Counted from the first letter of the stretch, positions 25,707 to 53,095 are shown. The stretch: DNA of 64,000 nt from Dehalococcoidia bacterium (GCA_965216155.1 CBDCFD010000007.1:528526-592525), one strand, 5' to 3'. Made by a program: numbers and translations. The notes: generated by a model not told the origin, from the letters alone.

Positions 25707-26350
25707 GTGTCGATGGTGGGGGTGGCAGTGATGGTCAGGGACAAATACGCAGTGCGGCCGGAGCCGGAACAAAAGGAAGAACTCCAGCATTTGATTCGGG
25801 GCGAGAAAAGCTCCGCCCGAGTGACGGCCCGAGCCCGGATTCTACTCAAGAGCGACGATGGTTGGGCGGCTCCCCAGGTGGCGGAAGCCCTGGATGTGGC
25901 GTTGGGCACCGTGTACCGGATCAAGCAGCGTTTTACCGGGGAGGGACTGGCTGGGGCCCTGTGGGACCGCCGCCAGGCCAACCGGCATCGGAAGCTGGAC
26001 GACCGGGGCGAAGCCCACCTGGTCGCCTTGGCCTGCAGCCCAGCGCCGGAGGGCCATGACCACTGGACCCTGCGCCTGCTGGCTGGAAAGGTGGTGGAAT
26101 TGGGGTTGGCGTCCTCCATGTCCCACGAAGGAGTGAGAAAGCGGCTCAAAAAAACGCCCTCAAGCCTTGGCAGAAGAAGGAATGGTGCATCCCCCAAGTG
26201 AGCGCCGAGTTCGTGGCCAACATGGATGACCTGCTGGACCTCTACGCCGAACCCTATAACCCAAAGCGGCCGGTGGTCTGCTTTGACGAGACCTCCACCC
26301 AGTTGTTGGCCGAGACCCGGCCGCCGCTGCCGGCCCAGCCGGGACGCCCG
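25707..26350 (+). mobile_element. IS630-family transposase gene, 5' fragment (HTH part plus start of the DDE part), truncated near 26350
   Basis: ARILLKSDDGWAAPQVAEALDVALGTVYRIKQRF...HWTLRLLAGKVVELG..., then after a -1 shift KKNALKPWQKKEWCIPQVSAEFVANMDDLLDLYAEPYNPKRPVVCFDETS. Homology ends at QPGRP. Confidence 0.8.
26148..26154 (+). promoter_or_regulatory. A7 slippery run, a candidate programmed -1 frameshift site of the IS630 fragment
   Basis: The reading frame changes from orfA (frame of 25707) to orfB (frame of 26198) exactly across CTCAAAAAAACG. Confidence 0.5.
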
Positions 26351-26400
26351 CACAGTCTCCTAAAAGAATTTTACTCCAGCACACCTTCCCGATACCCGGC

Positions 26401-26775
26401 AGGCCACGCGCAGGAACCAAGCAGACCAAACGCGCCAGGAAGAAACTCCCCAAGCCGAAACCCAGAGGTGACGGGAAGAGACCTCCCGCCACCAGGGCCA
26501 AGGACCCAGAAACCGCGAGGGAAGCGCGCCGGGAGTACGAACGGGCCAGGAACAGGACACCGGAGCGCAGGGAGTACCGGCTGCGCCACGCTGAGGAACA
26601 GAGACAGAAGGCCAAGCAGCTTGGCAAGTGCCAGAACTGCAGCAAGCCGGCGATTCCCCGCCAATCGCGATGCCCCACCTGCGCCGAGGCCAACCGGCAG
26701 TCCCGCAGGCGCAGCGACGCCAGGCGGAGGGCCGCGGCCAGACAAACGGCAACGACGGACAAAGCAGACCAGTGA
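26401..26775 (+). CDS. Small basic zinc-ribbon protein, left copy. The 5' end is unresolved and possibly truncated at the IS630 junction.
   Basis: Open frame without ATG: ...KRARKKLPKPKPRGDGKRPPATRAKDPETAREARREYERARNRTPERREYRLRHAEEQRQKAKQLGKCQNCSKPAIPRQSRCPTCAEANRQSRRRSDARRRAAARQ. Paralogous to 35707-36048 and 36075-36650. Confidence 0.55.
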   Translation, partial: RPRAGTKQTKRARKKLPKPKPRGDGKRPPATRAKDPETAREARREYERARNRTPERREYRLRHAEEQRQKAKQLGKCQNCSKPAIPRQSRCPTCAEANRQSRRRSDARRRAAARQTATTDKADQ

Positions 26776-26788
26776 GCGGCGAACAGAG

Positions 26789-26794
26789 TATAAT
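26789..26794 (+). promoter_or_regulatory. TATAAT -10-like box 7 nt upstream of the GTG at 26802
   Basis: GTATAATCC is conserved at the same distance before the ATG of the paralogous copy (36664-36669). Confidence 0.45.
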
Positions 26795-26801
26795 CCTCAC
26801 C

Positions 26802-27407
26802 GTGACGACCATCAACTCCCTCGACGACTTCCTCCGAGCCCTCGACGCCAACCCATCCTGGCGGGAGGCTGTCCGAACACGCATCCTGGGCGAGGAACTG
26901 CTTCAACTCCCGGTCAAGTTCGACGCCTTTGTCCAAGAGCAGAGGACGAGTCATGCGAACATAGACGCCCGGCTGGACCGCATAGAGAGCGACACCGGCA
27001 CCCTCAAGGGGGACTTCGCCAGGACCCGGGCCATCCAGGACGCCCAAGGGGTAACGTCCGACATGGGTCTAGCGTTCGTCCGGACCCTCAGCGCCACGGA
27101 CCTGAGCGACATGTCAGGGAACGCCCTTCCCAGGGACATCGGACGCAGCTTCAGGAGCGCAGATCTGGTGATCGAGGCAACGGACGGGACCGGCACCCGC
27201 TACATAGCGATGGAAATATCCTTCACCGCGGACCGGAGGGACTGCGACCGGGCTATCCGGAACGCCGGGCTCATCACCCGGTTCACCGGGAAACCGGCGC
27301 AGGCCGCCGTCGCAAGCGTCAGGAACGACCGGGACGCAACGGAGGCAGTGAAGTCCGAGGCAGTGTACTGGCACCCGCTGGAGGACCGGACGCCGAGTCC
27401 TGAGTAG
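26802..27407 (+). CDS. Coiled-coil plus PD-(D/E)xK-like (DUF3782-like) protein, left copy, intact
   Basis: TTINSLDDFLRALDANPSWREAVRTRILGEELLQLPVKFDAF..., helical middle, then SADLVIEATDGTGTRYIAMEISFTADRRDCDRAIRNAGLITRFTGKPAQAA. An alternative GTG start at 26772 overlaps the upstream stop. Confidence 0.65.
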   Translation: MTTINSLDDFLRALDANPSWREAVRTRILGEELLQLPVKFDAFVQEQRTSHANIDARLDRIESDTGTLKGDFARTRAIQDAQGVTSDMGLAFVRTLSATDLSDMSGNALPRDIGRSFRSADLVIEATDGTGTRYIAMEISFTADRRDCDRAIRNAGLITRFTGKPAQAAVASVRNDRDATEAVKSEAVYWHPLEDRTPSPE

Positions 27408-27542
27408 TTTCTTCAGAGCTACCCTGGGACACACACCAAGACCCTCAAGTCTCCTCCGAGACGAACGTCTCACGCTTGACGCCCTGTGCGGGCAGTAATA
27501 ATCTTGCGGAGGCAGTCACGAACCAACCAGCAGGAATAGGAA

Positions 27543-28016
27543 GTGACGACCTCAGCAAGCCCGCTACTGCCCAGTCCCACTGACCCAGTCAGGCAACCCA
27601 TCATCAATTCCCCGTACCATCCACCCGAGTACCACTGGGACCTGGACTACAGCGTCAAGGCCATCGACAACGTGCTTGATGGGAGGCGTGGGTCCCAGAA
27701 CATCCCTCCTGTCGCGGGATCGAGGAGGACCAGGGGGCGAGTACTGCTTCCCGGCCAGTTCGGCGCAGTCTGGACCCCGCTGGACCTGGTCAATGACATC
27801 CGGGAGGCCGTCAGCGCATGGCAGGCCACTGGATACCCCGGCATCACTCAGACCAGCAGGGACCTCATCAACCACTGGACGGACGAGGAAGCCTGCCAAC
27901 CCTACTTCGCCCAGATTAACGCGGTCCTGACCCACATCTACCTCCTGCGGGCCGGAGGGACGCCAATCAGAGCACGACTGCTGATTCGGAAGACCGGGAC
28001 AATTCTATGGCCTTGA
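27543..28016 (+). pseudogene. N-terminal fragment of a type III restriction res-like (DEAD/DEAH helicase-nuclease) protein
   Basis: PIINSPYHPPEYHWDLD...LVNDIREAVSAWQATGYPGITQTSRDLINHWTDEE...YFAQINAVLTHIYLL matches the N-terminal ~150 aa of ~900-aa enzymes. The helicase motifs are absent. Confidence 0.6.
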
Positions 28017-28957
28017 AGAGCGACATACAATACCCCATAGCCTACCAGCCACCATTCGAGGTCATCCACTTCGGAGATGCGGCAATAGGAGCAAGATACC
28101 TCTGCCTTGGATGCGATGAAGAGATGATCCCGCGCAAGGGCCAGATCAAGAGGCACCACTTCGCCCACAATGCAGGATCGGAAGAGTGCAACCCCGACAA
28201 CGCCCTGGACGAGACGGCAAAGGCTGCAATATGCCAAGGATTCATGAGCGCCGTCCAACTGGGAGAGAAATACCTCGTCCAGTTCCCCTGTTCAAGGTGC
28301 CGCCAACCAATCGGGGTGAACGTAGCATCCCAGGGTGCCACCATCGCAACAGAGAGGAGCGTTATTCAGGGTACCAGGTCCGACCTGGTCATAACGAAAG
28401 TGGACGGGAAGAGTCCCAGAGTCATCATCGAAATCGTAGTCCACCACGACATAGAAGAGCCCACTGGGGAGAGATACAGAGACTCCAGTATACCGGTGAT
28501 TAAGGTCAGACCGACATGGGAAACGGTCGACAGACTAACCAAGCGGGCCTACGGCGAAGAATCCCTGAACGTCGAAGACAAAATATGCAGAAGATGCAAG
28601 GAAACCAGCCAGGCCCACAGACAGTGGCTTGAGGGAACAAGAGAAAGGCTGAAGGATGCCCTACGGGCAGCGCAGGGAAACCCGGATAGACCCTTACCAA
28701 TCAGGCAGGATAGATACGGCTCATTCTTGAGGCGAGATACACGGGATCGAGTAAACGCAAACGCCAGAAGGCTGGCGGCAACGGGATTCATGCAACAGCC
28801 CAGCAGGCCCACCCTGTTTCGCGTACAAGCTGACGGCTGGACAGTCTACGCAGACCTGGACAGCACGGAGGTGATGAGGATATGGGAGGTGGACTGCGCT
28901 CCCGGGCTATACGCCTTTCCAGAAGACACGGAGCCCCCGAGGTGCAGAGAATGCGTC

Positions 28958-30052
28958 CTAGTGTCCTGTATTCAAAGTTCGCTGGCAAAAGCGGGCGACG
29001 TTGGCCAGGATTTGGTCGGCGGTCTTGGTCCAGACAAAAGGTTTGGGGTCTTCGTTGGTGACGTCCAGGTAGCGGTAGATGGCAGTCTCCAGTTCGGCGC
29101 TGCTCTGATGCACGCCGCGGCGCAACTGCTTTTCGGTGAGCAGACCGAACCAGCGCTCCACCAGGTTCAGCCAGGAGGCGCTGGTGGGTGTGAAGTGCAT
29201 ATGGAAGCGGGGCCGCTTGGCAAACCAGTTCCGGATCAGCGCCGTCTTGTGGGTGGCGTAGTTGTCCGCGATCAGGTGGACGTCGAGGTCGGCGGGCACC
29301 TCGGCCTCGATGGTATCGAGGAATTTGCGGAACTCCACGGCCCGGCGCCGTTGGTGGCAACGACCAATCACCTTGCCGGTCCTGGTGTCTAAGGCGGCGA
29401 ACAGCGAAGTGGCGCCGTGACGCAGGTAATCATGGGTGCGCCGTTCCACTTGTCCCGGGCGCATGGGCAATAGCGGACGGGTGCGATCCAACGCCTGGAT
29501 CTGGGACTTCTCGTCCACGCACAGGACCAACGCCCGATCCGGTGGATTCAGGTATAGCCCTACAACGTCCCTGACCTTCTCGATGAAGAAGGGGTCCGAC
29601 GACAACTTGAAGGTCTCCGTGCGGTGGGGCTGCAATCCGAAGGCCCGCCAGATGCGGCTGACCGTGTTGTGGCTCAGCCCGCTGCGCTGGGCCATGGACC
29701 GGGTGCTCCAATGGGTCGCGTCCCGGGGCGCGGTCTCCAGCGTCAGCGTAATAACACGCTCCACGTCGTCATCGGTAACCGCTCGAGGCCGTCCGCTGCG
29801 CGGTTCGTCCGGCAGTCCGTCCAGCCTCCGTTCCAGGAAGCGAGAACCCCACTTCCCCACCGTCTCATCGGACACTCCCAGGTCGGTGCCCACCGTGGTA
29901 TTGCTGCGGCCTTCGGCACAGCCCAAAATCATTCTGGCCCGCAGCGCCAAAGCTTGCGCCGTTTTCGGACGACGAACCCACCGTTCCAAGGTTTCACGCT
30001 CCACGTCATCCAAAATTAGCGGCGGCATTGGTCGTCCGATTGCCATGGTCAT
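28958..30052 (-). CDS. IS630-family DDE transposase
   Basis: 364-aa intact ORF: HTH region, LCVDEKSQIQAL, HLIADNYATHK, FTPTSASWLNLVERWF. Confidence 0.9.
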   Translation of the reverse strand: MTMAIGRPMPPLILDDVERETLERWVRRPKTAQALALRARMILGCAEGRSNTTVGTDLGVSDETVGKWGSRFLERRLDGLPDEPRSGRPRAVTDDDVERVITLTLETAPRDATHWSTRSMAQRSGLSHNTVSRIWRAFGLQPHRTETFKLSSDPFFIEKVRDVVGLYLNPPDRALVLCVDEKSQIQALDRTRPLLPMRPGQVERRTHDYLRHGATSLFAALDTRTGKVIGRCHQRRRAVEFRKFLDTIEAEVPADLDVHLIADNYATHKTALIRNWFAKRPRFHMHFTPTSASWLNLVERWFGLLTEKQLRRGVHQSSAELETAIYRYLDVTNEDPKPFVWTKTADQILANVARFCQRTLNTGH

Positions 30053-30125
30053 CCTCCTCTGGGCTGCTAACCCGGAGGATACCTCATCGCGAATACTATT
30101 ACAATGAACTTCAGTTACACCACAC
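28961..30125 (-). mobile_element. IS630-family insertion sequence, complete, with a TA target duplication
   Basis: Imperfect terminal inverted repeats GTGTCCTGTATTCAAAGTTC / GTGTGGTGTAACTGAAGTTC (14 of 20 matching). Flanking TA at 28959-28960 and 30126-30127. Confidence 0.85.
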
Positions 30126-30534
30126 TAGACATAGTGGGGGAAACTCTGGAACAGAACGGGGTGGAGATCAGGCGGTACTTCATGGACCACGGGATGCACA
30201 ACCACTGGGCACCGAATAACGAGGAGGAGACATGAGCCGCAGCGGCCGGAAGCGAACAGCCCAGGAATCCACAACCATAAAAACCAAACCTGCACAAAAA
30301 ATGGGGGATTAAAATCAATTTTGTGCAAAGCCCCCACCATGCATATTTCAGCAACGAAATTGATTTGGATCTTGCCCGCCGGAACTCGCGTTCTTTTCGC
30401 CGCCTGTGCCACGCGGTGGAACAGTTAGTAGATGCCATGGACCAGGCCGTTCTCTCATAGCCCTAGCTGATTTCATCCCTGAGGGGCGTTCCGCACCCAT
30501 AATCCTTCCACGGCTTGCTGAATGACACCACTCT

Positions 30535-32006
30535 ATGCCCAAGGATCGCGCCATGAAGCAGATAGGACAACTCGGGGCACCATTGCTTAGTTATGAGGGG
30601 GTAGGAGACGTCACAGTCGAGGAAGACGGCAACAGACTGGAAAGCCGGGGGTACTTTGAGGCATCCCATCTTTCGTCCGGTCGAGTGGCCGTGGGTTTCG
30701 TTCCAAATGACCGCAGGCGTACTTCACGGATTGAACTCCAGACTGATCCCAATTGCGAGCTTTCATTTATTGGACAAGACTTCGACGGCTGGAATCTCAA
30801 GACCATAGGCCCAACGCTATTCTCGAGGGTAAGCCGGCTGCCCAAGGATCGCGCCATTAGGACAACGGCTGGAATCTCAAGACCATAGGCCCAACGCTAT
30901 TCTCGAGGGTAAGCCGGCTGTTTATGCCTGTAGCTGTACGCCCCACTGCGCTCAATTTCAGTGCTCAATACATCGAAGCTTCGCGTAGGGAAGCATCGGC
31001 AGCTGGCTACCACAAGTCCCGTTTCTTAGTTTCGAACCTGCTTTGGGACAACAACTCTGGGCAGGAACCAGAACCCTTTAATCTTGAGGTTCCCGACTTC
31101 GAAGTAGAAATCATGCCTGTCGATGACTATACAGAAGTCGCCCATCGACTACGGAATATGCATGGCGTAGGGCCAACCGCTCATGTTTGGATCAGGAGTT
31201 AACATGAAGAACTCCTGCCATTGCAAAGCTACAGGGGCTTCCTGGACAACCTTATGTACGTCTTTCGCTTGGTTACTGGAAACCAAGTCAACTGGTACTA
31301 CGGAGAGGCCATCGACGAAAAATCTATGAGACCGGTAGAGAGGGTTCACAAGTATGCCTTGACCCGCCCATATTCCAATACCATCAGATTTCGACCCTTG
31401 GAAAGCGGCATGATGAGCGCGGTCCCAAAGTTGAGCCCGTCCGAGCTCGCGAGGGCATTCTTCGGAGATTCCAGACAAAACCTAGACCAAACAGCGGTGA
31501 AGGTGTTGATAGACCAATTTACCATGGGTTGCGACGAGACCTCATATTTGGAATCGAAAGGGCTATTAGCATCAAGTCTAACTGAGTTGATAGCTTCCAA
31601 AATCGCAAATGCCAATGGCGATTCTGACGCCATTTCTCATCGTAACTTCGTTACCGAGACGTTACCGATATTGAGAGAGGCGGTCGAGAACACCAAATTG
31701 CCAAAAGAAATCAAGGAACACGTCAAGAACCAATTGCAAGGTGCATATCGGAACACGTTTCGCCACAAGCTCAAGTCGCTGAATGACCGCCTCGAACTCG
31801 GTCTGAACAGTTCCGAGATTGGCCGAGTCGTTGACGTAAGAAACTCCTTGGTCCACGAAGGAACGTATCGGTCAAATTTCGATGATGGGGGATGGGTCAA
31901 CGACTATCAATTCACGACATGGGTGAACTTTAAAGCTATTTGCCGACTCTTGGGTTACGACGGAGAACTGCCAGTTTTCGGATATGGCCAATGGCCGGAA
32001 GTCTAA
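30535..32006 (+). pseudogene. Two-domain gene with a C-terminal Rx4H (HEPN-like) helical domain. It is disrupted by an 80-nt duplication and an in-frame TAA.
   Basis: ORFs 30535-30888, 30924-31202 and 31221-32006. Removing 30841-30920 fuses the first two in frame. The second and third share a frame and are separated only by the TAA at 31200-31202. The motif VVDVRNSLVHEG lies near the C-terminus. Confidence 0.55.
30787..30920 (+). repeat. Tandem duplication (54-nt unit at 30787-30840 and 30867-30920) with a 26-nt filler
   Basis: The filler CCCAAGGATCGCGCCATTAGGACAAC copies the 5' end of the same gene (30539-30572) minus 8 nt. Confidence 0.8.
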
Positions 32007-32236
32007 ACGGTCTCTCCCTTCGCAAGCCGTCTTTCTGTCGGAGTGTGCGTCGCATTTATGCATCTACCGCCCACCAAACGGCCCGAACGCTTCTCCACGA
32101 AATCGTTCGCCTCCTCTGTGTTCTCCCTCCAAGCCGTCTACACCTCGATCATCTTGTCGCTCTCCCACCCAGCGACGAGCCTGATATAAAGGCGCGGCAG
32201 TTTCTGCAGAACCGTCATCGTAGAGAAGGAGTAGCG

Positions 32237-33021
32237 ATGGATGTGCATGACGTCCACCACCTTAACCCCGGCCTGGCGGCACAGTCGAGTGATTTGGAGG
32301 CCAGCACCGGAGGAGACCGTCCTGGCCAAGTACGCCGATTACTTCTCACTGAACCAGCACGACCTGGACCGGAACGGCGTCCAGACGGCCCTCTACAGGC
32401 CAAGATGATCCGGGACGTGACCCAGGGCATCGTCCCCCAGCGCCAGTGCGTGAACGGAACGGGCCCCTTCAACCTGATGAAGTCCGAGCAACTCGTCTGG
32501 GTAATCTAAACTAATATCAAGGTGAAATGCGCAGATAGTGGATGTCAAGCAGCGGCGCCGGACCATCCTCCAAGTATGTATGAGAGGTCTTCACTGGCGC
32601 AACCAGGCCAATCTTCATCGTCCCTCGAATGTACATCCCGCCTTGGCTTAGGTTTAGGATGTCGACTACATAGAGACCGTGGTCCGTCGGGAGCGCCGCG
32701 GCACCTCCCACGGCGTGCAGCATCCGGGTGGCACGGGGCCTGTACTACCGGCCCAACACCTTCCGGAGCCGCCCCATAGAATGGGAGGAGTCGGCCCACG
32801 CCGACACCGGGATGCTGGGCCTCACCACCAGGCACATCTACTTCGCCGGGAGCCGGAAGCGGTTCCGGGTAAGGTATGACCGCATCGTGGCCTTCGACCC
32901 CTACGACGACGGGTTCGGAACCATGCGTGACGCGCAGACGGCCAGGCCCCAGAGCTTCCGGACCGGGGACGGCTGGTCCGCCTACAACCTAGCGGTCAAC
33001 CTGGCACAGGTCCAGGGGTGA
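32237..33021 (+). pseudogene. Gene with a C-terminal bacterial PH-like domain, disrupted by a MITE and frameshifts
   Basis: ...GPFNLMKSEQLVWVI before the MITE. After it, DVDYIETVVRRERRGTSHGV, then (shifted frame) RVARGLYYRPNTFRSRPIEWEESAHADTGMLGLTTRHIYFAGSRKRFRVRYDRIVAFDPYDDGFG. Confidence 0.5.
32506..32657. mobile_element. 152-bp MITE, copy A
   Basis: CTAAACTAATATCAAGGTG...CCTTGGCTTAGGTTTAG. Homologous along its length to 40934-41085, with unrelated flanks. Confidence 0.75.
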
Positions 33022-33265
33022 ACCACCAACTCCCCGCCCGTCTCCTTCCCCGCCAGGGGTCGCCAGCAAGACCTCGCCACGACGAAGCCCATGGGTCTCA
33101 TCCGGCCGGAAACTCCGGCCACAGGCAGGCAGCCTCCATGCCGTATTCCGGCGGCGGGATACCGCCGTCTTCGAGTCCGCAGTGGCCCAGTGGAACCAAG
33201 CCGGGCTCGCCAGGGGGACCGCCATTTGAGTGGGCGGCAAAGCCCCGCGAGAGCACACCCGGGGA

Positions 33266-33508
33266 TCAGCCGCCCACCGGCCTGAGGCGGCGCGCCAGGG
33301 CCTCAAGACCGGCGGTCCCGAGCGTCATGAGCAACACGGCCCCCAGGGTGAAGGGAGCCGTCATCATCGCCGTCAGCGCAAAGGCCTCGGGCTGAATTCC
33401 CCCAACCGGGACGTCCAGGACCCGGACCACCGCCACGAACCCGGCCCAGAGGGCCAGGAGACCCAGCCCCGCCAGGGCCACACGCGCCGTCCAACGATAA
33501 CCCTTCAT
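33266..33508 (-). CDS. Small two-TM membrane protein
   Basis: MKGYRWTARVALAGLGLLALWAGFVAVVRVL...FALTAMMTAPFTLGAVLLMTLGTAGLEALARRLRPVGG. A truncated paralogue lies at 51677-51800. Confidence 0.5.
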   Translation of the reverse strand: MKGYRWTARVALAGLGLLALWAGFVAVVRVLDVPVGGIQPEAFALTAMMTAPFTLGAVLLMTLGTAGLEALARRLRPVGG

Positions 33509-33777
33509 GCTTTCACCACCTGCGGACCATCTTGCGGTAATCCCCGCAGGGAGATTGTAGCAGGAAGGAAATGCGGGCTGGAACTGGTACAGACGGCCGG
33601 TCCGCCGAAAGCCAGGCAAAATCCGGACAGCAAAACGGACCTGCCGAGAGCATCAACAGCATCCAGGTGGTGAACCGACGCCGCGCCGCAGCCTTCCATC
33701 TCACCCCTGTTGCTGTGCAAGCTCCGAAAGCACGAGGGCGGTCCTCCGACAGGGTACAGGGGATCATGGCACACTGG

Positions 33778-33931
33778 GCAAGCCCCGCAGAAGCGGGGAT
33801 GGACCACCTGTCCCTCGCGTGACCGCGGACAACCACGAGGAAAAACCCGCGGGCGCGGGGATAAACCATGCCGAAAGACAACCTCAGGCCAGAGCCCTCA
33901 CGCTCCCCAAACCCCGCGGCAAACACAACCA
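33778..33931 (+). CRISPR. Degenerate type I-E-like mini-array: two good 29-nt repeats plus one decayed unit
   Basis: GCAAGCCCCGCAGAAGCGGGGATGGACCA (33778-33806) and GAAAAACCCGCGGGCGCGGGGATAAACCA (33840-33868) are 62 nt apart. A decayed unit ends at about 33931. Compare the E. coli-type repeat GAGTTCCCCGCGCCAGCGGGGATAAACCG. Confidence 0.5.
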
Positions 33932-34176
33932 CAGCTCCGAGGGATCCGAAACCAGCACGCAACCCGACGGCGCGAGCCAGGACACCCCGCAGGGGAGAAG
34001 AAGACGCCGCGGGGGCCGAAGGCCAAACTGCCATCCCCAAGGGATACACTCAACCGGTCCCGCACGTGCCGCACCTCGAGGAAACCCGCAGAAGGGCAGC
34101 TGGAACAGGGGAGAAAACAACAGCCCCGGGAGTAAAATCACCCGGAGCAGACCCAGCAGAGGAGGCCGGAGCAGAG

Positions 34177-35478
34177 ATGACCGGACACAGACCGGGGGCG
34201 GACCAGAGTCCGGACTCCAACGACCCCTTCGGGGTATCCAAGTTCTCGCCAAGACGCAACACCGTCCAGATAACCCTATGCCTGGCCCTCATCCTAGGAC
34301 TGCTGGCCTGGACGACGATTCACGCCGCCCTCACGGGCAGCCCAACCGCCACCCTGGTCCCGGCCGCCGCCCTGGCGGTCGCGCTCGTCATGATCATCAT
34401 CCTAGTGCGGGTGAGCATCCGCACCGTCCAGGGGGAAATCTGGATCCGCCGGATGGGAATGGGAGACCTGGAGTACCGGGTGGAACCGACGGGCAACGAC
34501 GAGATCACCAAGGCGCTGGAGGCGCTGGAGACGCTCCGGCAGAGCTCCCTGAGGGCCATCCAGCTGGACCAAGTCCGGCTGCTATCCCAGGAGCTGCAGG
34601 AGAAGAACGTCGAGCTGGAGAGCACTCTGGAGACGCTCAGGAAAACCCAGGACCGGATCATCAGCCAGCAGAAGCTGGCGGAGCTGGGCGAGCTGTCAGC
34701 CGGCGTGGCCCACGAGATGCGCAACCCCCTCCAGTTCATCAAGAACTTCTCCATCTCCTCGGACCTGCTCATCAGAGAGCTGGAGCCCCTGCTGGAGCAG
34801 CCGGACGAGGCCAGCCGCGAGGAGGCCAGGGAACTCATCCAGGAAATATCAGAGAACCTGGAACGCGTGAACCACCACAGCGAACGGGCCAACGGGATAG
34901 TGTCGGGGATGCTGACCCTAGACCGGGGGAGCGGCGGGGGATTCAGACCGGTGGACCTCAACCAGCTGGCGGCCGAGCAGACCAACCGGGGCCATCAGGC
35001 AGTGCAGGTCCATGAACCGGGGTTCAGCGCCCGGGTGACGATGGAGGCGGACCCGGACCTGGGGGAGATCACCCTGGTGCCCGAGGACGTAGCCAGGGTG
35101 ATAGCCAACCTGGTCACCAACGCCTGCCAGGCAATGGCCGAGAAGGCCCGGGGGGCCGGCGGGGACTACACGCCCGAGCTGCTGGTCAGGACGTCGGGGA
35201 CCGGGGACGGCGTGACCATCACGGTCCTGGACAACGGACCGGGCGTCACGCCGGAGATTGAACAGAAGATGTTCAACCCGTTCTTCACGACGAGGGACAC
35301 GGGCCGGAACACCGGCCTGGGGCTCAGCCTAGCCCACGACATCGCCCGGGAGCACGGGGGGGACATCGAGGTGAGATCCGAGCCCGGAGAGTACACGGAG
35401 ATGAGGGTATTCCTGCCGGACGGACCGCCGCCCCAGCGGGAACCAGCCCTGACGGAGCCAGCCGACACGGGACCCTGA
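34177..35478 (+). CDS. Sensor histidine kinase (2 TM, HAMP, HisKA, HATPase), orphan
   Basis: Start taken at the ATG preceded by GGAGG. LAELGELSAGVAHEMRNPLQFI (H-box), NLVTNACQAM (N-box), DNGPGV, GLGLSLAHDIAREHGG. Confidence 0.85.
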   Translation: MTGHRPGADQSPDSNDPFGVSKFSPRRNTVQITLCLALILGLLAWTTIHAALTGSPTATLVPAAALAVALVMIIILVRVSIRTVQGEIWIRRMGMGDLEYRVEPTGNDEITKALEALETLRQSSLRAIQLDQVRLLSQELQEKNVELESTLETLRKTQDRIISQQKLAELGELSAGVAHEMRNPLQFIKNFSISSDLLIRELEPLLEQPDEASREEARELIQEISENLERVNHHSERANGIVSGMLTLDRGSGGGFRPVDLNQLAAEQTNRGHQAVQVHEPGFSARVTMEADPDLGEITLVPEDVARVIANLVTNACQAMAEKARGAGGDYTPELLVRTSGTGDGVTITVLDNGPGVTPEIEQKMFNPFFTTRDTGRNTGLGLSLAHDIAREHGGDIEVRSEPGEYTEMRVFLPDGPPPQREPALTEPADTGP

Positions 35479-35706
35479 GCCGCCGCAGAGGGGAGGAGCA
35501 CCGCCCAGGGGTCCCGTGATAACCGACAGGAGGATAGACCCCGGCCCCGCAGGCGCGTGGATGGACCCCGGTGGAACAACACCTAGCCGGTACTCCTGCA
35601 GGAAACCCCGCGTCTACGTGCAGTAGGCCGAACTCCAGGCCGTACCTTCGAGGTCACCTTCCCGCTGCCGGAACCGAGCAACGCAGGCGGCCGTCCTCCC
35701 AGCAGG

Positions 35707-36048
35707 GTGAAACAGGCGAGGAAGACACCACGAAAAGGCTCCGCCAGTATACCTCCCAAGAAGACGACTCCAAAGGCCCAACAGACGAAGCCCAGACCTG
35801 AACCGGTTCAAGCCGGGGAGAGTCGTCGCGAGTACGAACGCCGGAGGAAACAGACTCCAGAGCGCAGGGAGCAGCGCCGCCTCCAGGAACAGGAACGACG
35901 CCGGAAGGTGAAAGAACAGGGACTCTGTGTGATCTGCCGCTTACCGGCCATACCGGACCAGAGCCGCTGCTCGACGTGCGCCGAAAAGCACAGGGCATCC
36001 CGAAGGAGGTGGCAGGCCCAACGGAGAAGCAAGAACAAGAAGAGCTAA
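35707..36048 (+). CDS. Small basic zinc-ribbon protein, paralogue R1
   Basis: 113 aa. ESRREYERRRKQTPERREQRRLQEQERRRKVKEQGLCVICRLPAIPDQSRCSTCAEKHRASRRR. Confidence 0.6.
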   Translation: MKQARKTPRKGSASIPPKKTTPKAQQTKPRPEPVQAGESRREYERRRKQTPERREQRRLQEQERRRKVKEQGLCVICRLPAIPDQSRCSTCAEKHRASRRRWQAQRRSKNKKS

Positions 36049-36074
36049 GAAAAGAGCCGCCCAGCAAAGGGACC

Positions 36075-36650
36075 ATGCCTACGGGCAGACCACGTCCCTC
36101 TGACAACACCCCAGACCCAAGCCGCGGACCCGTCGGGATAGACCCACCAGAAACACATACTTTTTTGCAGACCATCCTGTTACCGGAGCCCATACGCAAG
36201 GGCAAGAAGGCCAAAGGCCGACCACGTCCTGAGAAAGTCAAACAGCCAGTACGAAAGGCGCGAAAGCCGAAAGAGCCTCGCAAACCCTCCACAGATCCCT
36301 CTCTCAAGAAGGAAAAACCGGACCACCCGCCGCAACCCGATGAGAACGGGCAGGAAACCAACATTGGTGGCCCGGCAGCGCATGAAGCCAAGCTACTGCA
36401 ACGCCGTGAGTACGACCGGATAAAGAACAAGAGCCCGGAGCGCAGGGAGTACCAGCGGCAACTTGCCCAGGAACAGAGACAGAGGGCCAAGGAACTCGGC
36501 AGGTGCCGGAACTGCAGCAAGCCTGCCATCCTTGGCCAAACGCGATGCCCCACCTGCGCCGAGAATCACCGGCAGTCCCGCAGGCGCAGCGACGCCAACA
36601 GAAGGGCCGCGGCTGAAGAAACAGCACCAACGGGCCAAGCAGACCAATGA
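36075..36650 (+). CDS. Basic K/P/E-rich protein with a C-terminal zinc ribbon, paralogue R2
   Basis: ...LLQRREYDRIKNKSPERREYQRQLAQEQRQRAKELGRCRNCSKPAILGQTRCPTCAENHRQSRRRSDANRRAAA. The start is uncertain; the track ORF begins at 35976. Confidence 0.55.
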   Translation: MPTGRPRPSDNTPDPSRGPVGIDPPETHTFLQTILLPEPIRKGKKAKGRPRPEKVKQPVRKARKPKEPRKPSTDPSLKKEKPDHPPQPDENGQETNIGGPAAHEAKLLQRREYDRIKNKSPERREYQRQLAQEQRQRAKELGRCRNCSKPAILGQTRCPTCAENHRQSRRRSDANRRAAAEETAPTGQADQ

Positions 36651-36663
36651 GAAGGGAACGGCG

Positions 36664-36669
36664 TATAAT
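36664..36669 (+). promoter_or_regulatory. TATAAT -10-like box 7 nt upstream of the ATG at 36677
   Basis: Same box and spacing as at 26789-26794. Confidence 0.45.
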
Positions 36670-36676
36670 CCGCGCC

Positions 36677-37280
36677 ATGACGACCATCAACAACCAGGAC
36701 GATTTCCTCGAGGCGCTCAGGAACAACCCCCAGTGGAGGGACGCCGTCCGGGCCCAGATACTGGGCGAGGACCTGCTGAAGCTCCCGGTCAAGTTCGACG
36801 CGTTCGCCCGAGATCAGAACACGCGGGCCACCAACCTCGAGGAGCGCGTGGGCCGCATAGAGAGATACCGGCACCCTCAAGGGGGACTCCGCCAGGACTC
36901 GAGCCATCCAGGATGCCCAGGGGGGTAGCGTCCGACATGGGCCTGGAGTTCGTCCGGACCCTCAGCGCCACGGACCTGAGCGATATGGCCGAAAGCAGCC
37001 TGCCCCGGGACCCCCACCGCAGCTTCAGGAACACCGACCTGGTGATCGAAGCGACGGACGGCGCGGACACCCGTTACATAGCGATGGAGGTCTCCTTCAC
37101 GGCGGACCGGAGGGACTGCGACCGGGCCCTCCGGAACGCCGGGCTCATCACCCGGTTCACCGGCAAGCCGGCGCAGGCCGCCATAGCCAGCGTCAGGAAC
37201 GACAGGGAAGCAGCGGAGGCGGTGGAGTCCGGAGCGGTGTACTGGCCCCGCTGGAGGACCGGACGCGGAGTCCCAAGTGA
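36677..37280 (+). pseudogene. Coiled-coil plus PD-(D/E)xK-like protein, right copy, with at least 3 indels
   Basis: MTTINNQDDFLEALRNNPQWRDAVRAQILGEDLLKLPVKFDAF..., then frame changes near 36865, at the G6 run 36920-36925 and near 37240. DLVIEATDGADTRYIAMEVSFTADRRDCDRALRNAGLITRFTGKPAQAA is in another frame. Confidence 0.7.
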
Positions 37281-38450: not shown

Positions 38451-39740
38451 TGTAATCGGCAGAGTTAAATTGGACCACGTGGGCGGATAAATCGCTGACG
38501 ATTGGCGGTTGAATTCCGTACGGCCTTCCGCCATCCATAGGGTCATTTTCGACCCCATGGAAGGTGCCAAGGATGTACCAAGTGGAATCGTATCTGCGGG
38601 TCTGCCGGGCGGTGATGGTGGAAGGCATGAGCATCCGGGAGGCTTCCCGGGTGTTCGGGTTGCACCGGGACACGGTGCGCAAGATGCTGGCCTACTCGGT
38701 CCCTCCGGGCTACCGGAGACAGACCAAGCCCCGGCGCCCCAAGCCGGAGCCCTTCACCGGCGTCATCGACCGGATCCTTGAAGAGGACCTCAGGCTTCCC
38801 AGGAAGCAACGCCACACGGCCAAACGCATCTTCGAGAGGCTCAGGGACGAGTACGGATTCGATGGTGTATCCACCATCGTCAAGGATTACGTGCGGGAAA
38901 ATCGCCGCCAGACCAGGGAGATGTTCGTGCCGCTGTCCCATCCGCCGGGCCACGCCCAGTGCGACTTCGGCGAGGCCCTGGCGGTCATCGGCGGCGTGGA
39001 GCAGAAGGCCCACTGCTTCGTCCTGGACCTGCCCCACAGCGAGGGCTACTTCGTCAATGCCTATCCGGGGGAGACCACCGAGGCCTTCCTGGGCGGAGTG
39101 CCCCGGAGCATCCTCTGCGACAATACCAGGCTGGCGGTGGCGAAGATACTGGAGGGCGGGCGCCGCCAGCGCACCCGCGGCTTCACCGAGCTTCAGTCCC
39201 ACTACCTGTTCAAGGAACGGTTCGGGCGTCCCGGCAAGGGCAATGACAAGGGTAAAGTGGAGGGCTTGGTGGGATACGTGCGGCGCAACTCCCTGGTGCC
39301 CATTCCGTCCTTCGAGAGCTTCGATGCCCTGAATGCCTGCCTGGAGCGGCTCTGCCTGGACCGGATGGATGCCAGGCTCAGGGGCCACACTGAGACCATC
39401 GGCCAGCGGATGGAGCGGGACCTGGAGGCCCTCCTGCCGTTGCCGGACACGCCCTACGACGCCTGCGACCAGCAGACCGGTCGGATCGTTCACTGTCCCC
39501 GGTGCGCTACCGCACCAACGACTACCCGGCGCCGGTGGCCTACGGACACCGGGAGGTGGTGGTGTGGGGCTACGTGGACCAGGTGGTCATCAGCTGCGGC
39601 GCCGAGGTCATCCCCCGACACCCTCGCTCTTACTAGAAGGACGATTTTGTCTTCGACCCCATCCACTACCTAGCGCTGTTGGAGCAGAAGACGGCGGCCC
39701 TGGACCAGGCCGCTCCGTTGCAAGGGTGGGAACTGCATGA
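38451..39740 (+). mobile_element. istA: IS21 type A, fragment 2 (left terminal repeat plus 5' two-thirds of istA). It has an internal 30-nt deletion, a frameshift and a stop, and is truncated near 39740.
   Basis: TGTAATCGGCAGAGTTAAATTGGACC matches the reverse complement of 62041-62067. The IstA sequence is collinear with 60447-61958, except that AFLDGHVSAFAFLGGVP is reduced to AFLGGVP and the frame changes near 39485. Confidence 0.85.
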
Positions 39741-49234: not shown

Positions 49235-50731
49235 CTAGGCAAACTGATAGTCTCGTGAGGCGGCGATCAGGGTCAATATCTTGCTCACATTCCGAATCGT
49301 AGCACTGAGTTCTTCATTGGTGCTCCAGGCCAGATCGCCACATTTTTCGGCATGGACCATCAATTCAGAGTGGGTCGCCTCACTGACTTCCAACGGTCCC
49401 ATCGCATCAAGACAAGCTGCCACCATCGCCTGAGGGGAAAGATTCCCTTGCACATTCACCAGCACCCGTTTAATGATAGCCTGCACGCCGGGTAGCGAGG
49501 TGTCTCCAAATATCCCCGCGGCAAAATTCACCCGGCGCATCAAAACGCCAGGGTCGATCCATTCGGAGCCTGTGTGCCAACCCTCCACGCTGGGAGGATT
49601 CAGAAGCTCCTGTCCCTGCCAACTGCACTCCAACGCCAGATTGTTGAATCCTGGCGTGAAGCCGTTATAGTTGCCCGCCATACGCACAGTGCCAACGATC
49701 AATTCAGCCGGGCTTTTAACCCGGGCGAAGCGGGCATTCTTGAAGAACTCTGAGTTGAACAATGCTCGTAAAATAGACCGGATGTCACCACCGGATTCAT
49801 TGTAGGCATCCACCAACAACTCGATGGCTTCAGGATCAATGGGTGGTGTAATGTTCCAACTGGCCACATGGGGCTCGTCGGCGACGAAGAATCTGTAGAG
49901 GTGGCGGGCCAGGAACCGGGCCGTAGCCGGCTGATCCACAATAATGTCCACGATGTCTTCGCCATTGAAGTTCCCGGTATACCCTAGGAAGGTCTTCTCC
50001 CGATCGTCGTGGTCCTCAGGTTTGTACTCGAATTGCCAGTAGAAACGGCCTAAAGGATTACGGGGAATCTTGGGCGCAATCGTCCATCCGGTAAAAGCCC
50101 TGGCTGCTTCCCTGATATCATCCTCTGAGTAGTTTCCGACTCCGAGGGAGAAAAGCTCCAACAGCTCCCGCCCCCAGTTTTCATTTATGGCACCGTCATG
50201 ATTTCCGTGGTTGTCCAACCAGAAGATCATGGCTGGTGACTTTGCAACCTCTACCAGCAGGTCACGGTAAGTGCCCAATCCGTATTCACGGAAAATGGCA
50301 ATCTGGCGAGTCAGCTCCGGTGGATTGTCCACCTTGGAGTTGCTGGTGGCGAACAACTGATGCCAGAAGAGGGCCATCTTCTCTTCCAGAGGCCGTTTGG
50401 TGTTGATCATCCGGAAAACCCAATCGGCCTGATTAATTGGCGGCGCCCCGGCCCCCTCATAACCCGGGAAGAACCGGTACAGCAGTTCGTCGTCTATGGC
50501 CGGCTGCCGCTCTGGATACAGAAGCTCCTCGACCACGGCTTCGTAGCCTTTGGAGGCACGCTCCTCTAGTTCCTCACGGGGATCACCGAATCCCGCGCGT
50601 CTCATCAAGTGGGCCATCAATCGAATGTCTTCTTGGTGGGGCATTACCACCTCTCCGTTTATCGAGCCCGAAGCACTAAGCCAGGCGCCCATTGACGATA
50701 TCTTAGGATCGGCCAAAGCGAGTGTCAACAA
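49235..50731 (-). CDS. DUF1800 domain protein
   Basis: HLMRRAGFG...ALFWHQLFATS...WLDNHGN... motifs. This is the usual upstream partner of DUF1501. The true start may be the internal ATG near 50647. Confidence 0.8.
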   Translation of the reverse strand: MLTLALADPKISSMGAWLSASGSINGEVVMPHQEDIRLMAHLMRRAGFGDPREELEERASKGYEAVVEELLYPERQPAIDDELLYRFFPGYEGAGAPPINQADWVFRMINTKRPLEEKMALFWHQLFATSNSKVDNPPELTRQIAIFREYGLGTYRDLLVEVAKSPAMIFWLDNHGNHDGAINENWGRELLELFSLGVGNYSEDDIREAARAFTGWTIAPKIPRNPLGRFYWQFEYKPEDHDDREKTFLGYTGNFNGEDIVDIIVDQPATARFLARHLYRFFVADEPHVASWNITPPIDPEAIELLVDAYNESGGDIRSILRALFNSEFFKNARFARVKSPAELIVGTVRMAGNYNGFTPGFNNLALECSWQGQELLNPPSVEGWHTGSEWIDPGVLMRRVNFAAGIFGDTSLPGVQAIIKRVLVNVQGNLSPQAMVAACLDAMGPLEVSEATHSELMVHAEKCGDLAWSTNEELSATIRNVSKILTLIAASRDYQFA

Positions 50732-50958
50732 AAGCCAGGCAACGTGATAGTTCAGGGTTTATGTATCTTTCCTGCCCCCAGCCCGTCATTCTGGGCTTGA
50801 CCCGGAATCCAGAAGCGTTTGGAACCAGCAACGGTCCGTATCATTGGCATTTCCGGAGTCCCGCCTTCGGAGACCTTCGAACGAGTGGATGGGCCGGTCA
50901 CTGGATGTGGGACCCGGGGGGTAGCCCATGTTGGCTCCGGGGGTCTCCATCCCCCCTT

Positions 50959-51614
50959 TGTCAAGGGCGGCGGGATGTTGGGCCATCAGGGCGGAGGAAA
51001 AGTGTACCACCCGGGTTGTTGACGTTCAGCGAAAAGGTCCGGGCTAACTGGCCAGCATAAATGTCCGTGACAGTTGTTGGTGGGAACGTGACGCAGACAG
51101 GTGTCCAGTACACCAGGGCAGGAGGAGGACGGTTTCTGGTGCGACCTACCCGTCGTCTTTGTTGTCTGGAACCTGGGACGCAGCGCTCTCCCTGCTTCGC
51201 TTGAGGCGGTAGCTCTCGCCGTTCATCTCCAGGATGTGGACGTGGTGGGTGAGCCGGTCCAGCAACGCTCCGATCAGCCGCTCCGAGCCGAAGACCTCGG
51301 TCCACTCGTCGAAGGGAAGGTTGGTGGTGACCATGATGGAGCCCCGTTCGTAGCGCTGGCTGAAGACCTCGAAGAGCAGTTCCGCCCCGGTGCGGGATAG
51401 TGGCACGAAGCCCAACTCGTCGCCGATCAGCAGCTTGAGCCGGGACAGTTGCCGCTGCAGGTTGAGCAGCCGCCTCTCATCCCTGGCCTCCATCAGCTCG
51501 TGCACCAGGCCGGCGGCGGTGGTGAAGCCCACCGGCATTCCCCGCTGGCAGGCGGCGAGGCCCAGCCCCTGGGCCACGTGGGTCTTGCCAGCGCCGCTGT
51601 TGCCGACGGCGATA
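50959..51614 (-). mobile_element. istB: IS21 type A, fragment 3 (terminal repeat plus 3' two-thirds of istB), truncated inside the Walker A region
   Basis: The end TGTCAAGGGCGGCGGGATGTTGGGCC is uninterrupted here. The IstB ORF 51146-51577 extends upstream to GNSGAGKTHV, and homology stops at about 51614. Confidence 0.85.
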
Positions 51615-51800: not shown

Positions 51801-53039
51801 CAACGAACTACCCCTGGAGAAAAGGGCCGGAGCAGACGACAGGAAACTGTCGGAAGAACTGGATGCCGGCATCCTGGCAATCCTGGCCCCCCGCGTCCTC
51901 CGGAAAATGGGAAACAGACTCACGCCCGGGGGAAAACTGGAATGGTGGAACCAGGACGACGGGGCCAGGCCCCTGACCCTGGACTGGTACAACCCGGCTG
52001 CAGCGCCGGCGGAACTCCTTGAGGATCTGAGAAGGACGAACCCGGGAGCCCTGGCCTGGGTCTTCCACTTTGGCAGAACGCCCGAGGAAATCAGGCACCC
52101 CGAGCAGTTCATAGTGGAAGCCCGCAGGAGCATGGCCGAACACGGGATGGAAGGCAGGAACTGGAAATACGCCGCAGCCCTGCCCACGGACATTGCCTGG
52201 AGCGCCTTCGAGGGGCTGGGGCCTCGGCAGGCCGCCATGATGACGGACGGGATGGCCCGGGCCGGACACTACCCGGAAGAGAAATCGCCCAGCACTGCGC
52301 TGAGGCAGTCGTCAAGAACGGGACCATGGGGGAATGGGAACCGAGCCGGACGAGAGAGCAGAACGTCAGGACGGCAATCACCCTCTTCCTGCGGGAGGCG
52401 GAGGGGGCGGGCCGGGAAAAACTCTTTGAAATCAGACAGGACACACACGACATAATCGACTACGTCCGGAACGCTTCGAGAAGAAACGAGAGCGTGGGGG
52501 CGAAGACCTGGGGAGGACTCCGCAAGGCGTCAGAGAGATGGCACCGGGAACAGGCTGCGTTCTGGGCCGACGTGAGAAGGGCAAACCGGAAGGGCGGGAT
52601 ACTCGCGTGGAACTCCCTGCTGGGAGAGAACGAGGCCCTCGGGTTCCAACTCATACCCCTGACCGACGAGTGGCAACTCCTGGAGGAATCGGAGGAGATG
52701 GACCACTGCGTGGCGGACTACGGGCCGGGCTGCGCATCAGGACATTCCCGGATATTCAGCATCCGGCAGGACGGAAAGAGAGTGGCGGCGACGCAGATAG
52801 CCAACTGGGGCAGCGGCAGTTGGAGAGTGCAGCAGACCCGGGGCAGGAACAACGGTCCGGTGGGAGGGAAAGTCGGGCAGGCGGCGCTCAGCGCCGCCTC
52901 GGCATACACGAAACTGTGGAAACAGGAAGGAGCCGAACACAGATCCTGGACGGGGGGGAAACCCGGACCGGAACAGCACGGACCGGAACAGCACGGACCG
53001 GAACAGCACGGAGCGGAAGGGCCGGGGGAGAACGAGTGA
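51789..53039 (+). pseudogene. PcfJ-like (plasmid/conjugative-element-type) protein gene, apparently frameshifted
   Basis: C-terminal half: WNSLLGENEALGFQLIPLTDEWQLLEESEEMDHCVADYGPGCASGHSRIFSIRQDGKRVAATQI...QTRGRNN (PcfJ-type core). The N-terminal part lies in ORF 51907-52455, and an ATG at 51789 lies in yet another frame. Confidence 0.55.
52965..53009 (+). repeat. Perfect 15-nt tandem repeat x3 (GGACCGGAACAGCAC), encoding GPEQH x3
   Basis: Read directly at the 3' end of the PcfJ-like ORF. Confidence 0.9.
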
Positions 53040-53095
53040 GGAAGGAAGAACACGAGGACCGGACCGGGCAACCCCCGTCTGGGGCCAGACCGAGA

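Follow-up and report, generated by a model that had tools for sequence, protein, structure and literature searches.

A 64,000-nucleotide (nt) stretch of DNA from a Dehalococcoidia bacterium (GCA_965216155.1, CBDCFD010000007.1:528526-592525; hereafter the window), which sits in a 525,741-bp metagenomic contig, contains a composite of two separate genes in two diverged paralogous copies, both partly decayed. The first gene encodes a small, very basic protein that ends in a zinc ribbon (the ribbon gene), and the second a coiled-coil protein with a predicted PD-(D/E)xK fold (gene 2). We find that the ribbon gene follows a type I-E CRISPR repeat, which is either the final repeat of an array or a solitary or mini-array repeat, and that, where the copies are intact, it starts at the AUG (or GUG) within the 8-nt 5' handle of this repeat. 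Gene 2 is a stand-alone gene and belongs to a large family that has no name. The reading that we favour, a repeat-led ribbon gene plus a stand-alone coiled-coil nuclease-fold gene, partly decayed here, has as a whole slightly less than an even chance of being correct in our estimate; within it, the CRISPR-repeat-led ribbon gene is the part that deserves follow-up. An initial annotation of the window had interpreted the pair as a module, which is only partly right, and had missed the tie to CRISPR repeats.

Ribbon genes lie behind type I-E CRISPR repeats

The link between ribbon genes and repeats emerged from the translations of open reading frames (ORFs) upstream of ribbon genes. Outside the window, 12 ribbon loci from a few related metagenomes were available (loci and proteins are designated below by L and P numbers). 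Rfam detected no CRISPR-DR family at its gathering thresholds in the window or in eight loci, and the repeats were defined by direct repeat analysis. The related loci contain type I-E arrays with 29-nt palindromic repeats, a 61-nt period and adjoining cas6e-cas1-cas2 genes, the evidence coming from L009, where the cas genes are present, and from the arrays of L014, L015 and L016.

The junction between repeat and gene is clearest where the array is long. In L014, 20 repeats (CCCCGCCGGCGCGGGGATGAACC, 61-nt period) degenerate toward the ribbon gene, whose start is supplied by the ATG within the last repeat (GGGG directly followed by ATGAGTCC). The 22 repeats of L015 belong to a different I-E variant, and there the ribbon gene starts with a GTG within the final repeat. 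Shorter arrangements show the same geometry: L024 has two repeats 61 nt apart and a ribbon gene starting at the handle ATG, L026 and L018 have a solitary repeat with the start ATGAACC, read as Met-Asn-Pro (MNPPKR), and the handle of L025 is GTGAACC. In L017, a degenerate repeat lies 26 nt upstream and a mutated handle, CTGAACC, falls within the ORF. L016 combines several of these elements, with a 41-repeat array, a 1.3 kb gap, a solitary repeat, the ribbon gene and gene 2 in this order.

The locus L009:36-4360 carries genes for Cas6e (PF08798), Cas1 (PF01867) and Cas2 (PF09707), assigned with Pfam, followed by 35 repeats. Gene 2 comes straight after the final repeat, co-oriented with it and present from about codon 83 onwards, and the junction is a GGGGA..GAC microhomology, which looks like a deletion that took a ribbon gene together with codons 1-82 of gene 2. 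This locus fixes the polarity of the arrangement, with the ribbon gene and gene 2 placed at the trailer end of the array and co-oriented with CRISPR RNA transcription.

Many ribbon proteins begin with MNP, MNH or MSP, or are preceded in frame by ..AGAG(M/V/I)(N/D)(P/H)... Over the first 20 ribbon codons, L018, L026 and L014 differ mainly by synonymous or conservative changes, which argues that the N-terminus is translated and that the handle AUG is its sole available start. Predicted repeat hairpins are intact in L014, in L024 and at position 33845 of the window, and are lost in L018 and at window position 36122. L018 is a 129-kb contig, and its record name suggests a circular, high-coverage replicon. 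At L020:4870-5020 (and in the same way in L021-L023), a ribbon gene of the MEGRTFEF class is preceded by a degenerate repeat end (GGCGGATAGAAC). The 32-nt stretch after this repeat end holds GGAAGGAAGTTCGTCCTTCCAC, 17 nt that repeat the ribbon start GTGGAAGGACGAACTT in inverted orientation and that could form a hairpin hiding the start codon or could be a self-directed pseudo-spacer.

The ribbon family comprises about 106 clusters, all unnamed save one, which is called 'hypothetical protein'. Its members share a short, strand-like N-terminal motif, x-(T/V)-F-x-x-(S/T)-(F/I)-x-(L/F), followed by a K/P-rich linker, a helix, a C4 zinc ribbon and HRQSRRR, and the segment REY.R.RN.TPERREY...AQEQRQKAKELG is common to them. 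The CxxC-x10-CxxC ending and the very basic character described in the initial annotation are both borne out (pI 10.3-11.6, 23-33% K+R). We found no Pfam or PDB relative of these proteins, and scans with NCBIfam and PADLOC returned nothing specific. In P0152 and P0185, fragments of a resolvase and of a DUF772 transposase are fused by read-through to the ribbon ORFs.

Repeat remnants in front of the window's ribbon genes

We searched the window with the pattern CCCCGC-N4-GCGGGGATRRACC, allowing up to three mismatches, and obtained seven matches against 0.22 expected, a number reached by none of 100 shuffled sequences. Six of the seven are on the ribbon strand, three of these adjoining ribbon sequences, and the seventh (33776-33798, minus strand) is the reverse reading of the palindromic stem at 33783 rather than a separate site.

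Two type I-E-like repeats lie 62 nt apart at 33783-33867 on the plus strand (33783-33805 with no mismatch, 33845-33867 with one). An ATG directly after the second repeat opens a fragment resembling a ribbon 5' end (33868-33992, plus strand), a weak match to residues 49-93 of P0203 (tblastn E 0.003), which is joined in frame to the upstream part of a histidine kinase ORF. In this ORF (33868-35478), about 100 K/P/R/T-rich residues come first; for the kinase itself, the gene caller places the start at about 34177. Such ribbon-type sequence is reflected in the strong A-over-T skew between 33 and 38 kb.

A solitary type I-E-like repeat (35545-35567, plus strand, one mismatch) is found 70 nt upstream of the N-terminal motif of a third ribbon paralogue, with its ATG out of frame with that motif. 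A more degenerate repeat (36122-36145, plus strand), consisting of CCGCGGACCCGTCGGG and the handle ATAGACCC, stands directly before the ETHTF motif of the right ribbon gene and has lost its hairpin. The left copy, like L002, starts at CCCCGCA, which is the 5' arm of the repeat, and the loop, the 3' arm and the ATG are deleted; homology between the left copy and L002 begins exactly at CCCGCACAGTCTCC. This deletion accounts for the missing start codon of the left ribbon gene. Farther away, directly after a PcfJ-like ORF (52326-53039), four type I-E-like repeats spaced at about 61 nt form a degenerate mini-array (53095-53306, plus strand), with no cas genes nearby. The arrays of the window are collapsed to remnant repeats.

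Two diverged copies of the gene pair

The left and right copies have the same gene order and strand, each consisting of a ribbon ORF that ends in CxxC-x10-CxxC...HRQSRRR and a following gene that starts with MTTIN. The initial annotation had noted this duplication at roughly four-fifths identity, in agreement with the blastn alignment of 26527-27400 to 36402-37273 (80.7% identity over 875 nt, 4 gaps) and with repeat families D1, D2, D3 and D5 from the repeat search of the window. The ratio of non-synonymous to synonymous substitution rates between the copies is 0.23-0.43, which shows that they are diverged paralogues evolving as genes and, as had been claimed, no assembly duplicate. The N-terminal parts of the two copies belong to separate sub-lineages, each of which recurs among homologues, indicating old paralogues and no recent duplication at this site. 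Exact matches between the copies extend to 36 nt at most; given this and the 81% identity, excision by recombination between them, which had also been suggested, is unlikely.

In the left copy, the ribbon gene remnant (26347-26775, plus strand) matches members of the ribbon family in tblastn down to E 4e-63. Its frame contains no ATG, GTG or TTG between 26287, just after the stop at 26286, and its own stop at 26775, and the public gene call skips it. The left ribbon ORF is probably a dead gene or one using an unknown start. Left gene 2 (26802-27407, plus strand) is intact, with 201 amino acids forming a helical hairpin, a coiled coil and a PD-(D/E)xK-fold domain (D121, E138, S140), and is preceded by a TATAAT box (26789-26794, plus strand) 7 nt before the start codon, within the ribbon 3' end.

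On the right side, the third ribbon paralogue (plus strand) matches the other two with tblastn E values of 1e-9 to 1e-18. Its existence had been recognized, but not its extent: placed earlier at 35707-36048, it runs from 35638 to 36048, since the conserved GRTFEVTFPLPEP motif begins at 35638, and 35707 is only the earliest canonical start codon. The right ribbon gene (36075-36650, plus strand) has an ATG at 36075 that reads across the degenerate repeat; the gene caller places the start at a GTG at 35976, and P0121 is 100% identical. A TATAAT box (36664-36669, plus strand) again lies 7 nt before the start of gene 2. Right gene 2 (36677-37280, plus strand) is a pseudogene that requires three frame changes (frames 1, 2, 0, 2), in line with the at least three indels reported before, and the public gene call splits it into pieces of 93 and 134 amino acids. 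Distant from these copies, a short piece at 50719-50826 resembles the zinc-ribbon part of the family (tblastn E 2.7e-4) and is a decayed extra copy.

Gene 2 encodes a predicted stalk and nuclease fold

Gene 2 has 945 close relatives, the nearest of which are all from Dehalococcoidia metagenome-assembled genomes. At 50% identity the family amounts to 2,214 clusters with E<=1e-3, 912 of them below 1e-10, and looking up these clusters gave no informative name, one member being called 'hypothetical protein'. The window protein has no Pfam match at E<=1 (hmmscan) and none in NCBIfam or PADLOC. Among 85 diverse members (E<=0.01), DUF3782 and all PD-(D/E)XK models fall outside the 25 most-matched families of 137, and those 25 are generic coiled-coil models. 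A sequence-profile search of the PDB gave coiled-coil noise alone.

The structure prediction is more informative. A first AlphaFold2 run with 11 close sequences was poor (predicted local distance difference test, pLDDT, 56), which was remedied by the alignment of 85 sequences (pLDDT 96.0, predicted template modelling score 0.79). In the resulting model the N-terminal half is all-helical, with two short helices and a long helix (residues 36-87), and is followed by an alpha/beta domain (strands 91-96, 122-127, 132-139 and 166-172; helices 98-118 and 145-162). The order alpha-beta-beta-beta-alpha-beta is that of a PD-(D/E)xK core, and the model as a whole combines an N-terminal coiled-coil stalk with a C-terminal PD-(D/E)xK domain. 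Foldseek against the PDB ranks NucS/EndoMS 2VLD first (E 1.7e-3, probability 1.00, root-mean-square deviation 2.7 A over 75 columns). The other matches are 5GKJ (NucS/EndoMS), MspJI, BbvCI, PaqCI, Hjc and SgrAI, all PD-(D/E)xK nucleases, so that the matches are mutually consistent though their E-values are weak. Residues D121, E138 and S140 are invariant in the 85 homologues, and the helix that follows carries the nearly invariant R150, R153 and N154. In the model, D121 before strand 2 and E138-x-S140 closing strand 3 would occupy the canonical place of D...(D/E)xK. The nuclease-type fold that the initial annotation had seen in the sequence is supported, and the conserved residues agree with it in part, S140 standing where the canonical lysine would be.

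The lengths of the gene 2 core are quantised in steps of 201+7n residues (201, 208, 215 ... 292; homologues P0001-P0120), the variable segment of the stalk consisting of tandem 7- or 14-residue units. At the DNA level these are tandem repeats, with 6.2 copies of 21 nt at 95% identity at L011:4193-4323 and 2.3 copies of 42 nt at L002:4128-4224. Such near-identical repeats imply recent expansion and contraction that preserves the heptad register.

Gene 2 mostly stands alone and ribbon cargo varies

A JGI metagenome contig scan yielded one locus, and neighbourhoods were therefore taken from exact-protein look-ups. In both window copies and in L001, L002, L007, L016, L017 and L018, gene 2 starts 7 nt after the end of a TATAAT box, and in more distant homologues a TAnAAT box precedes the gene within 45 nt, which brings the loci with TATAAT or TAnAAT to 16 overall. 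The spacing of the box suggests a leaderless mRNA. Homology among gene 2 copies extends from about 70 nt upstream of the start through the stop codon and then ends. A scan of 33.6-37.5 kb with the sigma-70 consensus returned no full promoter.

The neighbours of gene 2 vary by locus and include NadA-, DnaE-, TrpD-, Uma2- and TnpB-like ORFs (translations read, unscanned). No ribbon gene lies upstream of gene 2 in 10 of 11 genome loci, and gene 2 is missing from all seven ribbon loci that were picked independently of it; adjacency is confined to one close subclade (both window copies, L002, L016, L017 and L018). Gene 2 is its own transcription unit and mostly alone, and the claim of a conserved two-gene module is not supported, with a ribbon gene in one of 11 gene 2 loci and gene 2 in none of the seven unbiased ribbon loci. 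At L001:3049-3924, a copy of gene 2 that shares 91% identity with the left one of the window directly follows a TnpB-like ORF (translation read, unscanned); about 50 nt of ribbon 3' end remain upstream of it, indicating that the ribbon gene was lost there. Neither family was found in IMG/VR viral contigs.

The gene that follows the ribbon gene differs in a similar way. It is gene 2 in the subclade just named, a Type ISP restriction enzyme at L024:5825-9166 and L026:6504-9815, a helix-turn-helix protein with an MmeI-type enzyme in L014 (2271-6215), Uma2 with BrxC/PglY in L025, and other genes in L013, L015 and L020. A large Type ISP or MmeI-type enzyme takes the place of gene 2 in three unrelated contigs (L014, L024 and L026). 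This variety indicates that the ribbon gene is a repeat-led gene ahead of changing defence-type cargo, with gene 2 as one possible neighbour.

Proposed mechanism and alternatives

We hypothesize that read-through transcription of the array would yield the ribbon mRNA. In type I-E, Cas6e is established to cleave the repeat at the 3' base of its hairpin (GGGG^AUAAACCG), and a cut at GGGG^AUG would free an mRNA beginning with the ribbon start codon. A leaderless mode would fit this mRNA, since there is no room for a Shine-Dalgarno sequence between stem and AUG, and gene 2 is apparently likewise leaderless. The basic ribbon protein might then associate with nucleic acid and regulate the nuclease or restriction gene that lies downstream, thereby tying this gene to CRISPR-Cas activity, and gene 2 might act in defence as a multimeric, stalk-mounted DNA nuclease. 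We put this chain of events forward tentatively, considering it rather unlikely to hold in full. A related and somewhat less probable proposal is that ribbon genes are natural cargo in spacer position. Cas6e, in cutting a final or solitary repeat, would produce an mRNA that opens with the AUG of the handle, and CRISPR-Cas activity would thereby license a basic DNA- or RNA-binding regulator. This regulator would couple other defence genes, among them the coiled-coil PD-(D/E)xK nuclease and the Type ISP/MmeI restriction enzymes, to the CRISPR state, and the arrangement, if true, would be a protein-based counterpart of CreTA-type guarding.

Several observations weigh against these ideas. Read-through and Cas6e processing are deduced from the anatomy of the loci only, and nucleic-acid binding by the ribbon protein is suggested by its charge and its zinc ribbon. 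Cas6e products carry a 5'-OH, which is reportedly poor for leaderless translation in E. coli. The window has no cas genes, and the copies in L018 and at window position 36122 cannot depend on Cas6e, since their hairpin has decayed and their ribbon ORF is intact. In the KRILFQHTF subclade of ribbon genes, to which the left window copy, L002 and L016 belong, the repeat has lost an internal part and a start is not obvious. The sample of ribbon loci is small and phylogenetically narrow. For gene 2, the Foldseek E-values are weak even at their best (1.7e-3), and with a serine at the canonical lysine position nuclease catalysis is only putative.

The main rival is that the link is merely historical: the ribbon gene would have flanked the trailer of I-E arrays in this lineage, repeat-repeat recombination would have left one repeat, and the ATG of the handle would serve by accident, without meaning for regulation. 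We regard this as unlikely, though it deserves serious consideration, as solitary repeats with decayed hairpins do stand beside intact ribbon ORFs (L018, L026 and the window), trailer-end repeats are usually degenerate, as in L014 and L016, and an ATG in the handle is common among I-E repeats anyway. An accidental start is nevertheless difficult to reconcile with a start codon in the handle or stem in at least six loci and three repeat variants, with a conserved ribbon motif only 3-4 codons after the start and no alternative start, with tandem ribbon units that each have their own repeat (window 33.8-36.7 kb and L017), and with ribbon units that are also distant from any array. The remaining explanations are less likely.

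One of these sees the repeat-led ribbon unit, on its own or together with gene 2, as a mobile or recombination-prone cassette that spreads through recombination at CRISPR repeats or repeat-like sequences. The left window copy and L002 share a left boundary inside the repeat, and the genes upstream of it are unrelated and truncated, namely the IS630 transposase of the window and, in L002, a UvrD-like ORF (translation read, unscanned). The resolvase and DUF772-transposase fragments fused to the ribbon ORFs of P0152 and P0185, the microhomology junction of L009 from the last repeat to the interior of gene 2, and surroundings rich in insertion sequences (IS) would also fit. Against this, the repeat search of the window found no terminal inverted repeats, the right end has neither a repeat nor a target duplication, with homology ending at the stop codon of gene 2, the unit has no transposase or integrase, and there are no relatives in IMG/VR viral contigs. 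A cassette is improbable on balance, and a transposon was dropped as a reading, given the lack of inverted repeats and the end of homology at the stop codon.

Still more doubtful is an obligate two-gene module, toxin-antitoxin-like or defence-like, in which the ribbon protein neutralises or represses the nuclease. A small, basic ribbon protein encoded 26-40 nt ahead of gene 2 in both window copies, L002, L016, L017 and L018, and the ribbon 3' end retained in L001, could be taken in its favour, but the locus counts given above, a gene 2 family about 20 times the size of the ribbon family and the -10 box of gene 2 itself all speak against it, and an intact left gene 2 beside a start-less ribbon gene would be lethal for a real toxin-antitoxin pair. 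It is very improbable, finally, that the repeat and the following 32 nt form a CreA- or CreR-like guide that directs Cascade to repress a nearby gene, with the ribbon ORF incidental: such elements are known (PMC8501985, PMC9458426, bioRxiv 10.1101/2023.03.03.530964), two-repeat mini-arrays lie directly upstream in L024 and at window 33783/33845, and the pseudo-spacer of L020-L023 has the 17-nt inverted copy of the ribbon start, but the 32 nt encode a conserved peptide whose differences are mostly synonymous, most loci have no second repeat after them, and no seed match of at least 9 nt to the first bases of the pseudo-spacer occurs within 4 kb on either side in 10 loci.

Comparison with known systems

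Hartmann et al. 2016 (eLife, PMC4786415) described a family of prokaryotic endonucleases that carry a coiled-coil stalk at the N-terminus; in Pfam, these coiled coils are placed together under DUF3782. Gene 2 resembles these coiled-coil PD-(D/E)XK endonucleases in having a variable-length N-terminal stalk and a C-terminal PD-(D/E)xK-fold domain, and both are prokaryotic, of unknown function and present as many paralogues. The DUF3782 resemblance proposed in the initial annotation is not supported by the profile searches, as no DUF3782 or PD-(D/E)XK model matches the window protein at E<=1 or is among the 25 families most matched by the 85 members. Gene 2 further differs in its MTTIN.. helical hairpin, in its strict heptad steps and in having D...E-x-S instead of D...(D/E)xK. 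Gene 2 is a new, unnamed variant of a known architecture, for which membership of the DUF3782 type is only a candidate assignment.

The best structural match of the C-terminal domain is the C-terminal nuclease domain of NucS/EndoMS (2VLD, 5GKJ), with 9-16% sequence identity and no sequence-level match in the PDB profile search. NucS has an N-terminal DNA-binding beta-barrel, whereas gene 2 has a helical hairpin and a coiled coil, and its assignment to NucS/EndoMS is not supported. Shedu (SduA, DUF4263) is a stand-alone gene of defence islands, with a C-terminal NucS-like PD-(D/E)xK domain and a variable regulatory N-terminal part. Gene 2 is similar in being a stand-alone gene with a NucS-like C-terminal PD-(D/E)xK domain, but it matches neither DUF4263 in Pfam nor the Shedu models of PADLOC and cannot be assigned to Shedu; in addition, several gene 2 paralogues are possible per contig, which is unusual for Shedu.

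For the ribbon-repeat layout, the nearest known systems are CreTA, CrePA, CreR and mini-arrays, in which ectopic or degenerate type I repeats lie beside a toxin, a regulator or defence cargo (PMC8501985, PMC9458426; see also bioRxiv 10.1101/2023.03.03.530964 and 10.1101/2024.01.05.574328). CreTA, CrePA and CreR, like the ribbon units, suggest a functional tie of CRISPR-Cas to neighbouring genes, and two-repeat units are present in L024 and at window 33783/33845, without the seed match sought above. In CreTA-type systems, however, Cascade is directed to a promoter by a pseudo-spacer lying between the repeats, whereas the ribbon repeat is fused to the start of the gene and supplies its start codon, and it lies at the trailer end with no target match found. 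RNA anti-CRISPRs are solitary repeat units on phages and plasmids that act as decoys (Camara-Wilpert et al. 2023, PMC10651486). The ribbon units share with them solitary CRISPR repeats outside arrays but differ in that the repeat is in several cases the last one of a long chromosomal array, with cas genes in L009, and the ribbon family was not found in IMG/VR. In all of the compared repeat systems the repeat makes a guide-like or decoy RNA, and none of them has a trailer-end repeat that provides a protein gene with its start codon.

Surroundings of the two copies

The host has a Dehalococcoidia-type genome, and the units lie in an IS-rich chromosomal region. The window is IS-dense, with an IS110-type element, a fragment and an intact copy of IS630, IS21 istA/istB and Mu-like/rve sequences, the sites being 4299-5333, 25707-26346, 28958-30052, 38564-39673, 51146-51577 and 59671-61958; this density fits the decay of the units studied. 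Directly upstream of the left unit, an N-terminal fragment of an IS630-type transposase (25707-26346, plus strand; HTH_23/HTH_29/HTH_32) is cut off at the start of the unit, and the ORF starting at 26198 consists of transposase sequence first and then changes in character.

The defence-type surroundings noted in the initial annotation are recognizable between the two copies. An N-terminal fragment of a BPTD_3080-family restriction endonuclease (27543-28016, plus strand; NCBIfam NF046055, E 8.6e-27, profile positions 2-127 of 970) is followed by a CoiA_N/DUF7830-like ORF (28007-28960, plus strand; Pfam CoiA_N E 4.7e-8), which is apparently interrupted by an IS630 element with a DDE_3 transposase gene (28958-30052, minus strand). 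An ORF at 31221-32006 (plus strand) has a weak HEPN-type match (Pfam HEPN_Apea E 0.0018, below the curated cut-off; PADLOC PbeC E 0.0013). Between them, an exact 56-nt direct repeat with an 80-nt period (30785-30840 and 30865-30920) lies at the junction of the ORFs 30535-30888 and 30924-31202 and probably reflects a recent tandem duplication by which a gene is disrupted.

Significance

The confident nuclease-fold model of gene 2 represents more than 2,000 clusters that are matched by no Pfam, NCBIfam or PADLOC model. If these findings hold, the exact heptad steps of its stalk make it well suited to the question of whether a molecular distance is determined by the length of the stalk.

The ribbon-repeat link points to an undescribed connection between CRISPR arrays and neighbouring defence genes. 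Ectopic repeats have so far been read as guide-like RNAs (CreA, CreR and mini-arrays) or as decoys (the RNA anti-CRISPRs, Racr). If our reading is true, a protein gene whose start codon comes from the handle of an array's trailer-end repeat would be a different use of the repeat. The same ribbon gene ahead of different defence genes would then suggest a shared regulatory adaptor in Chloroflexota defence islands.

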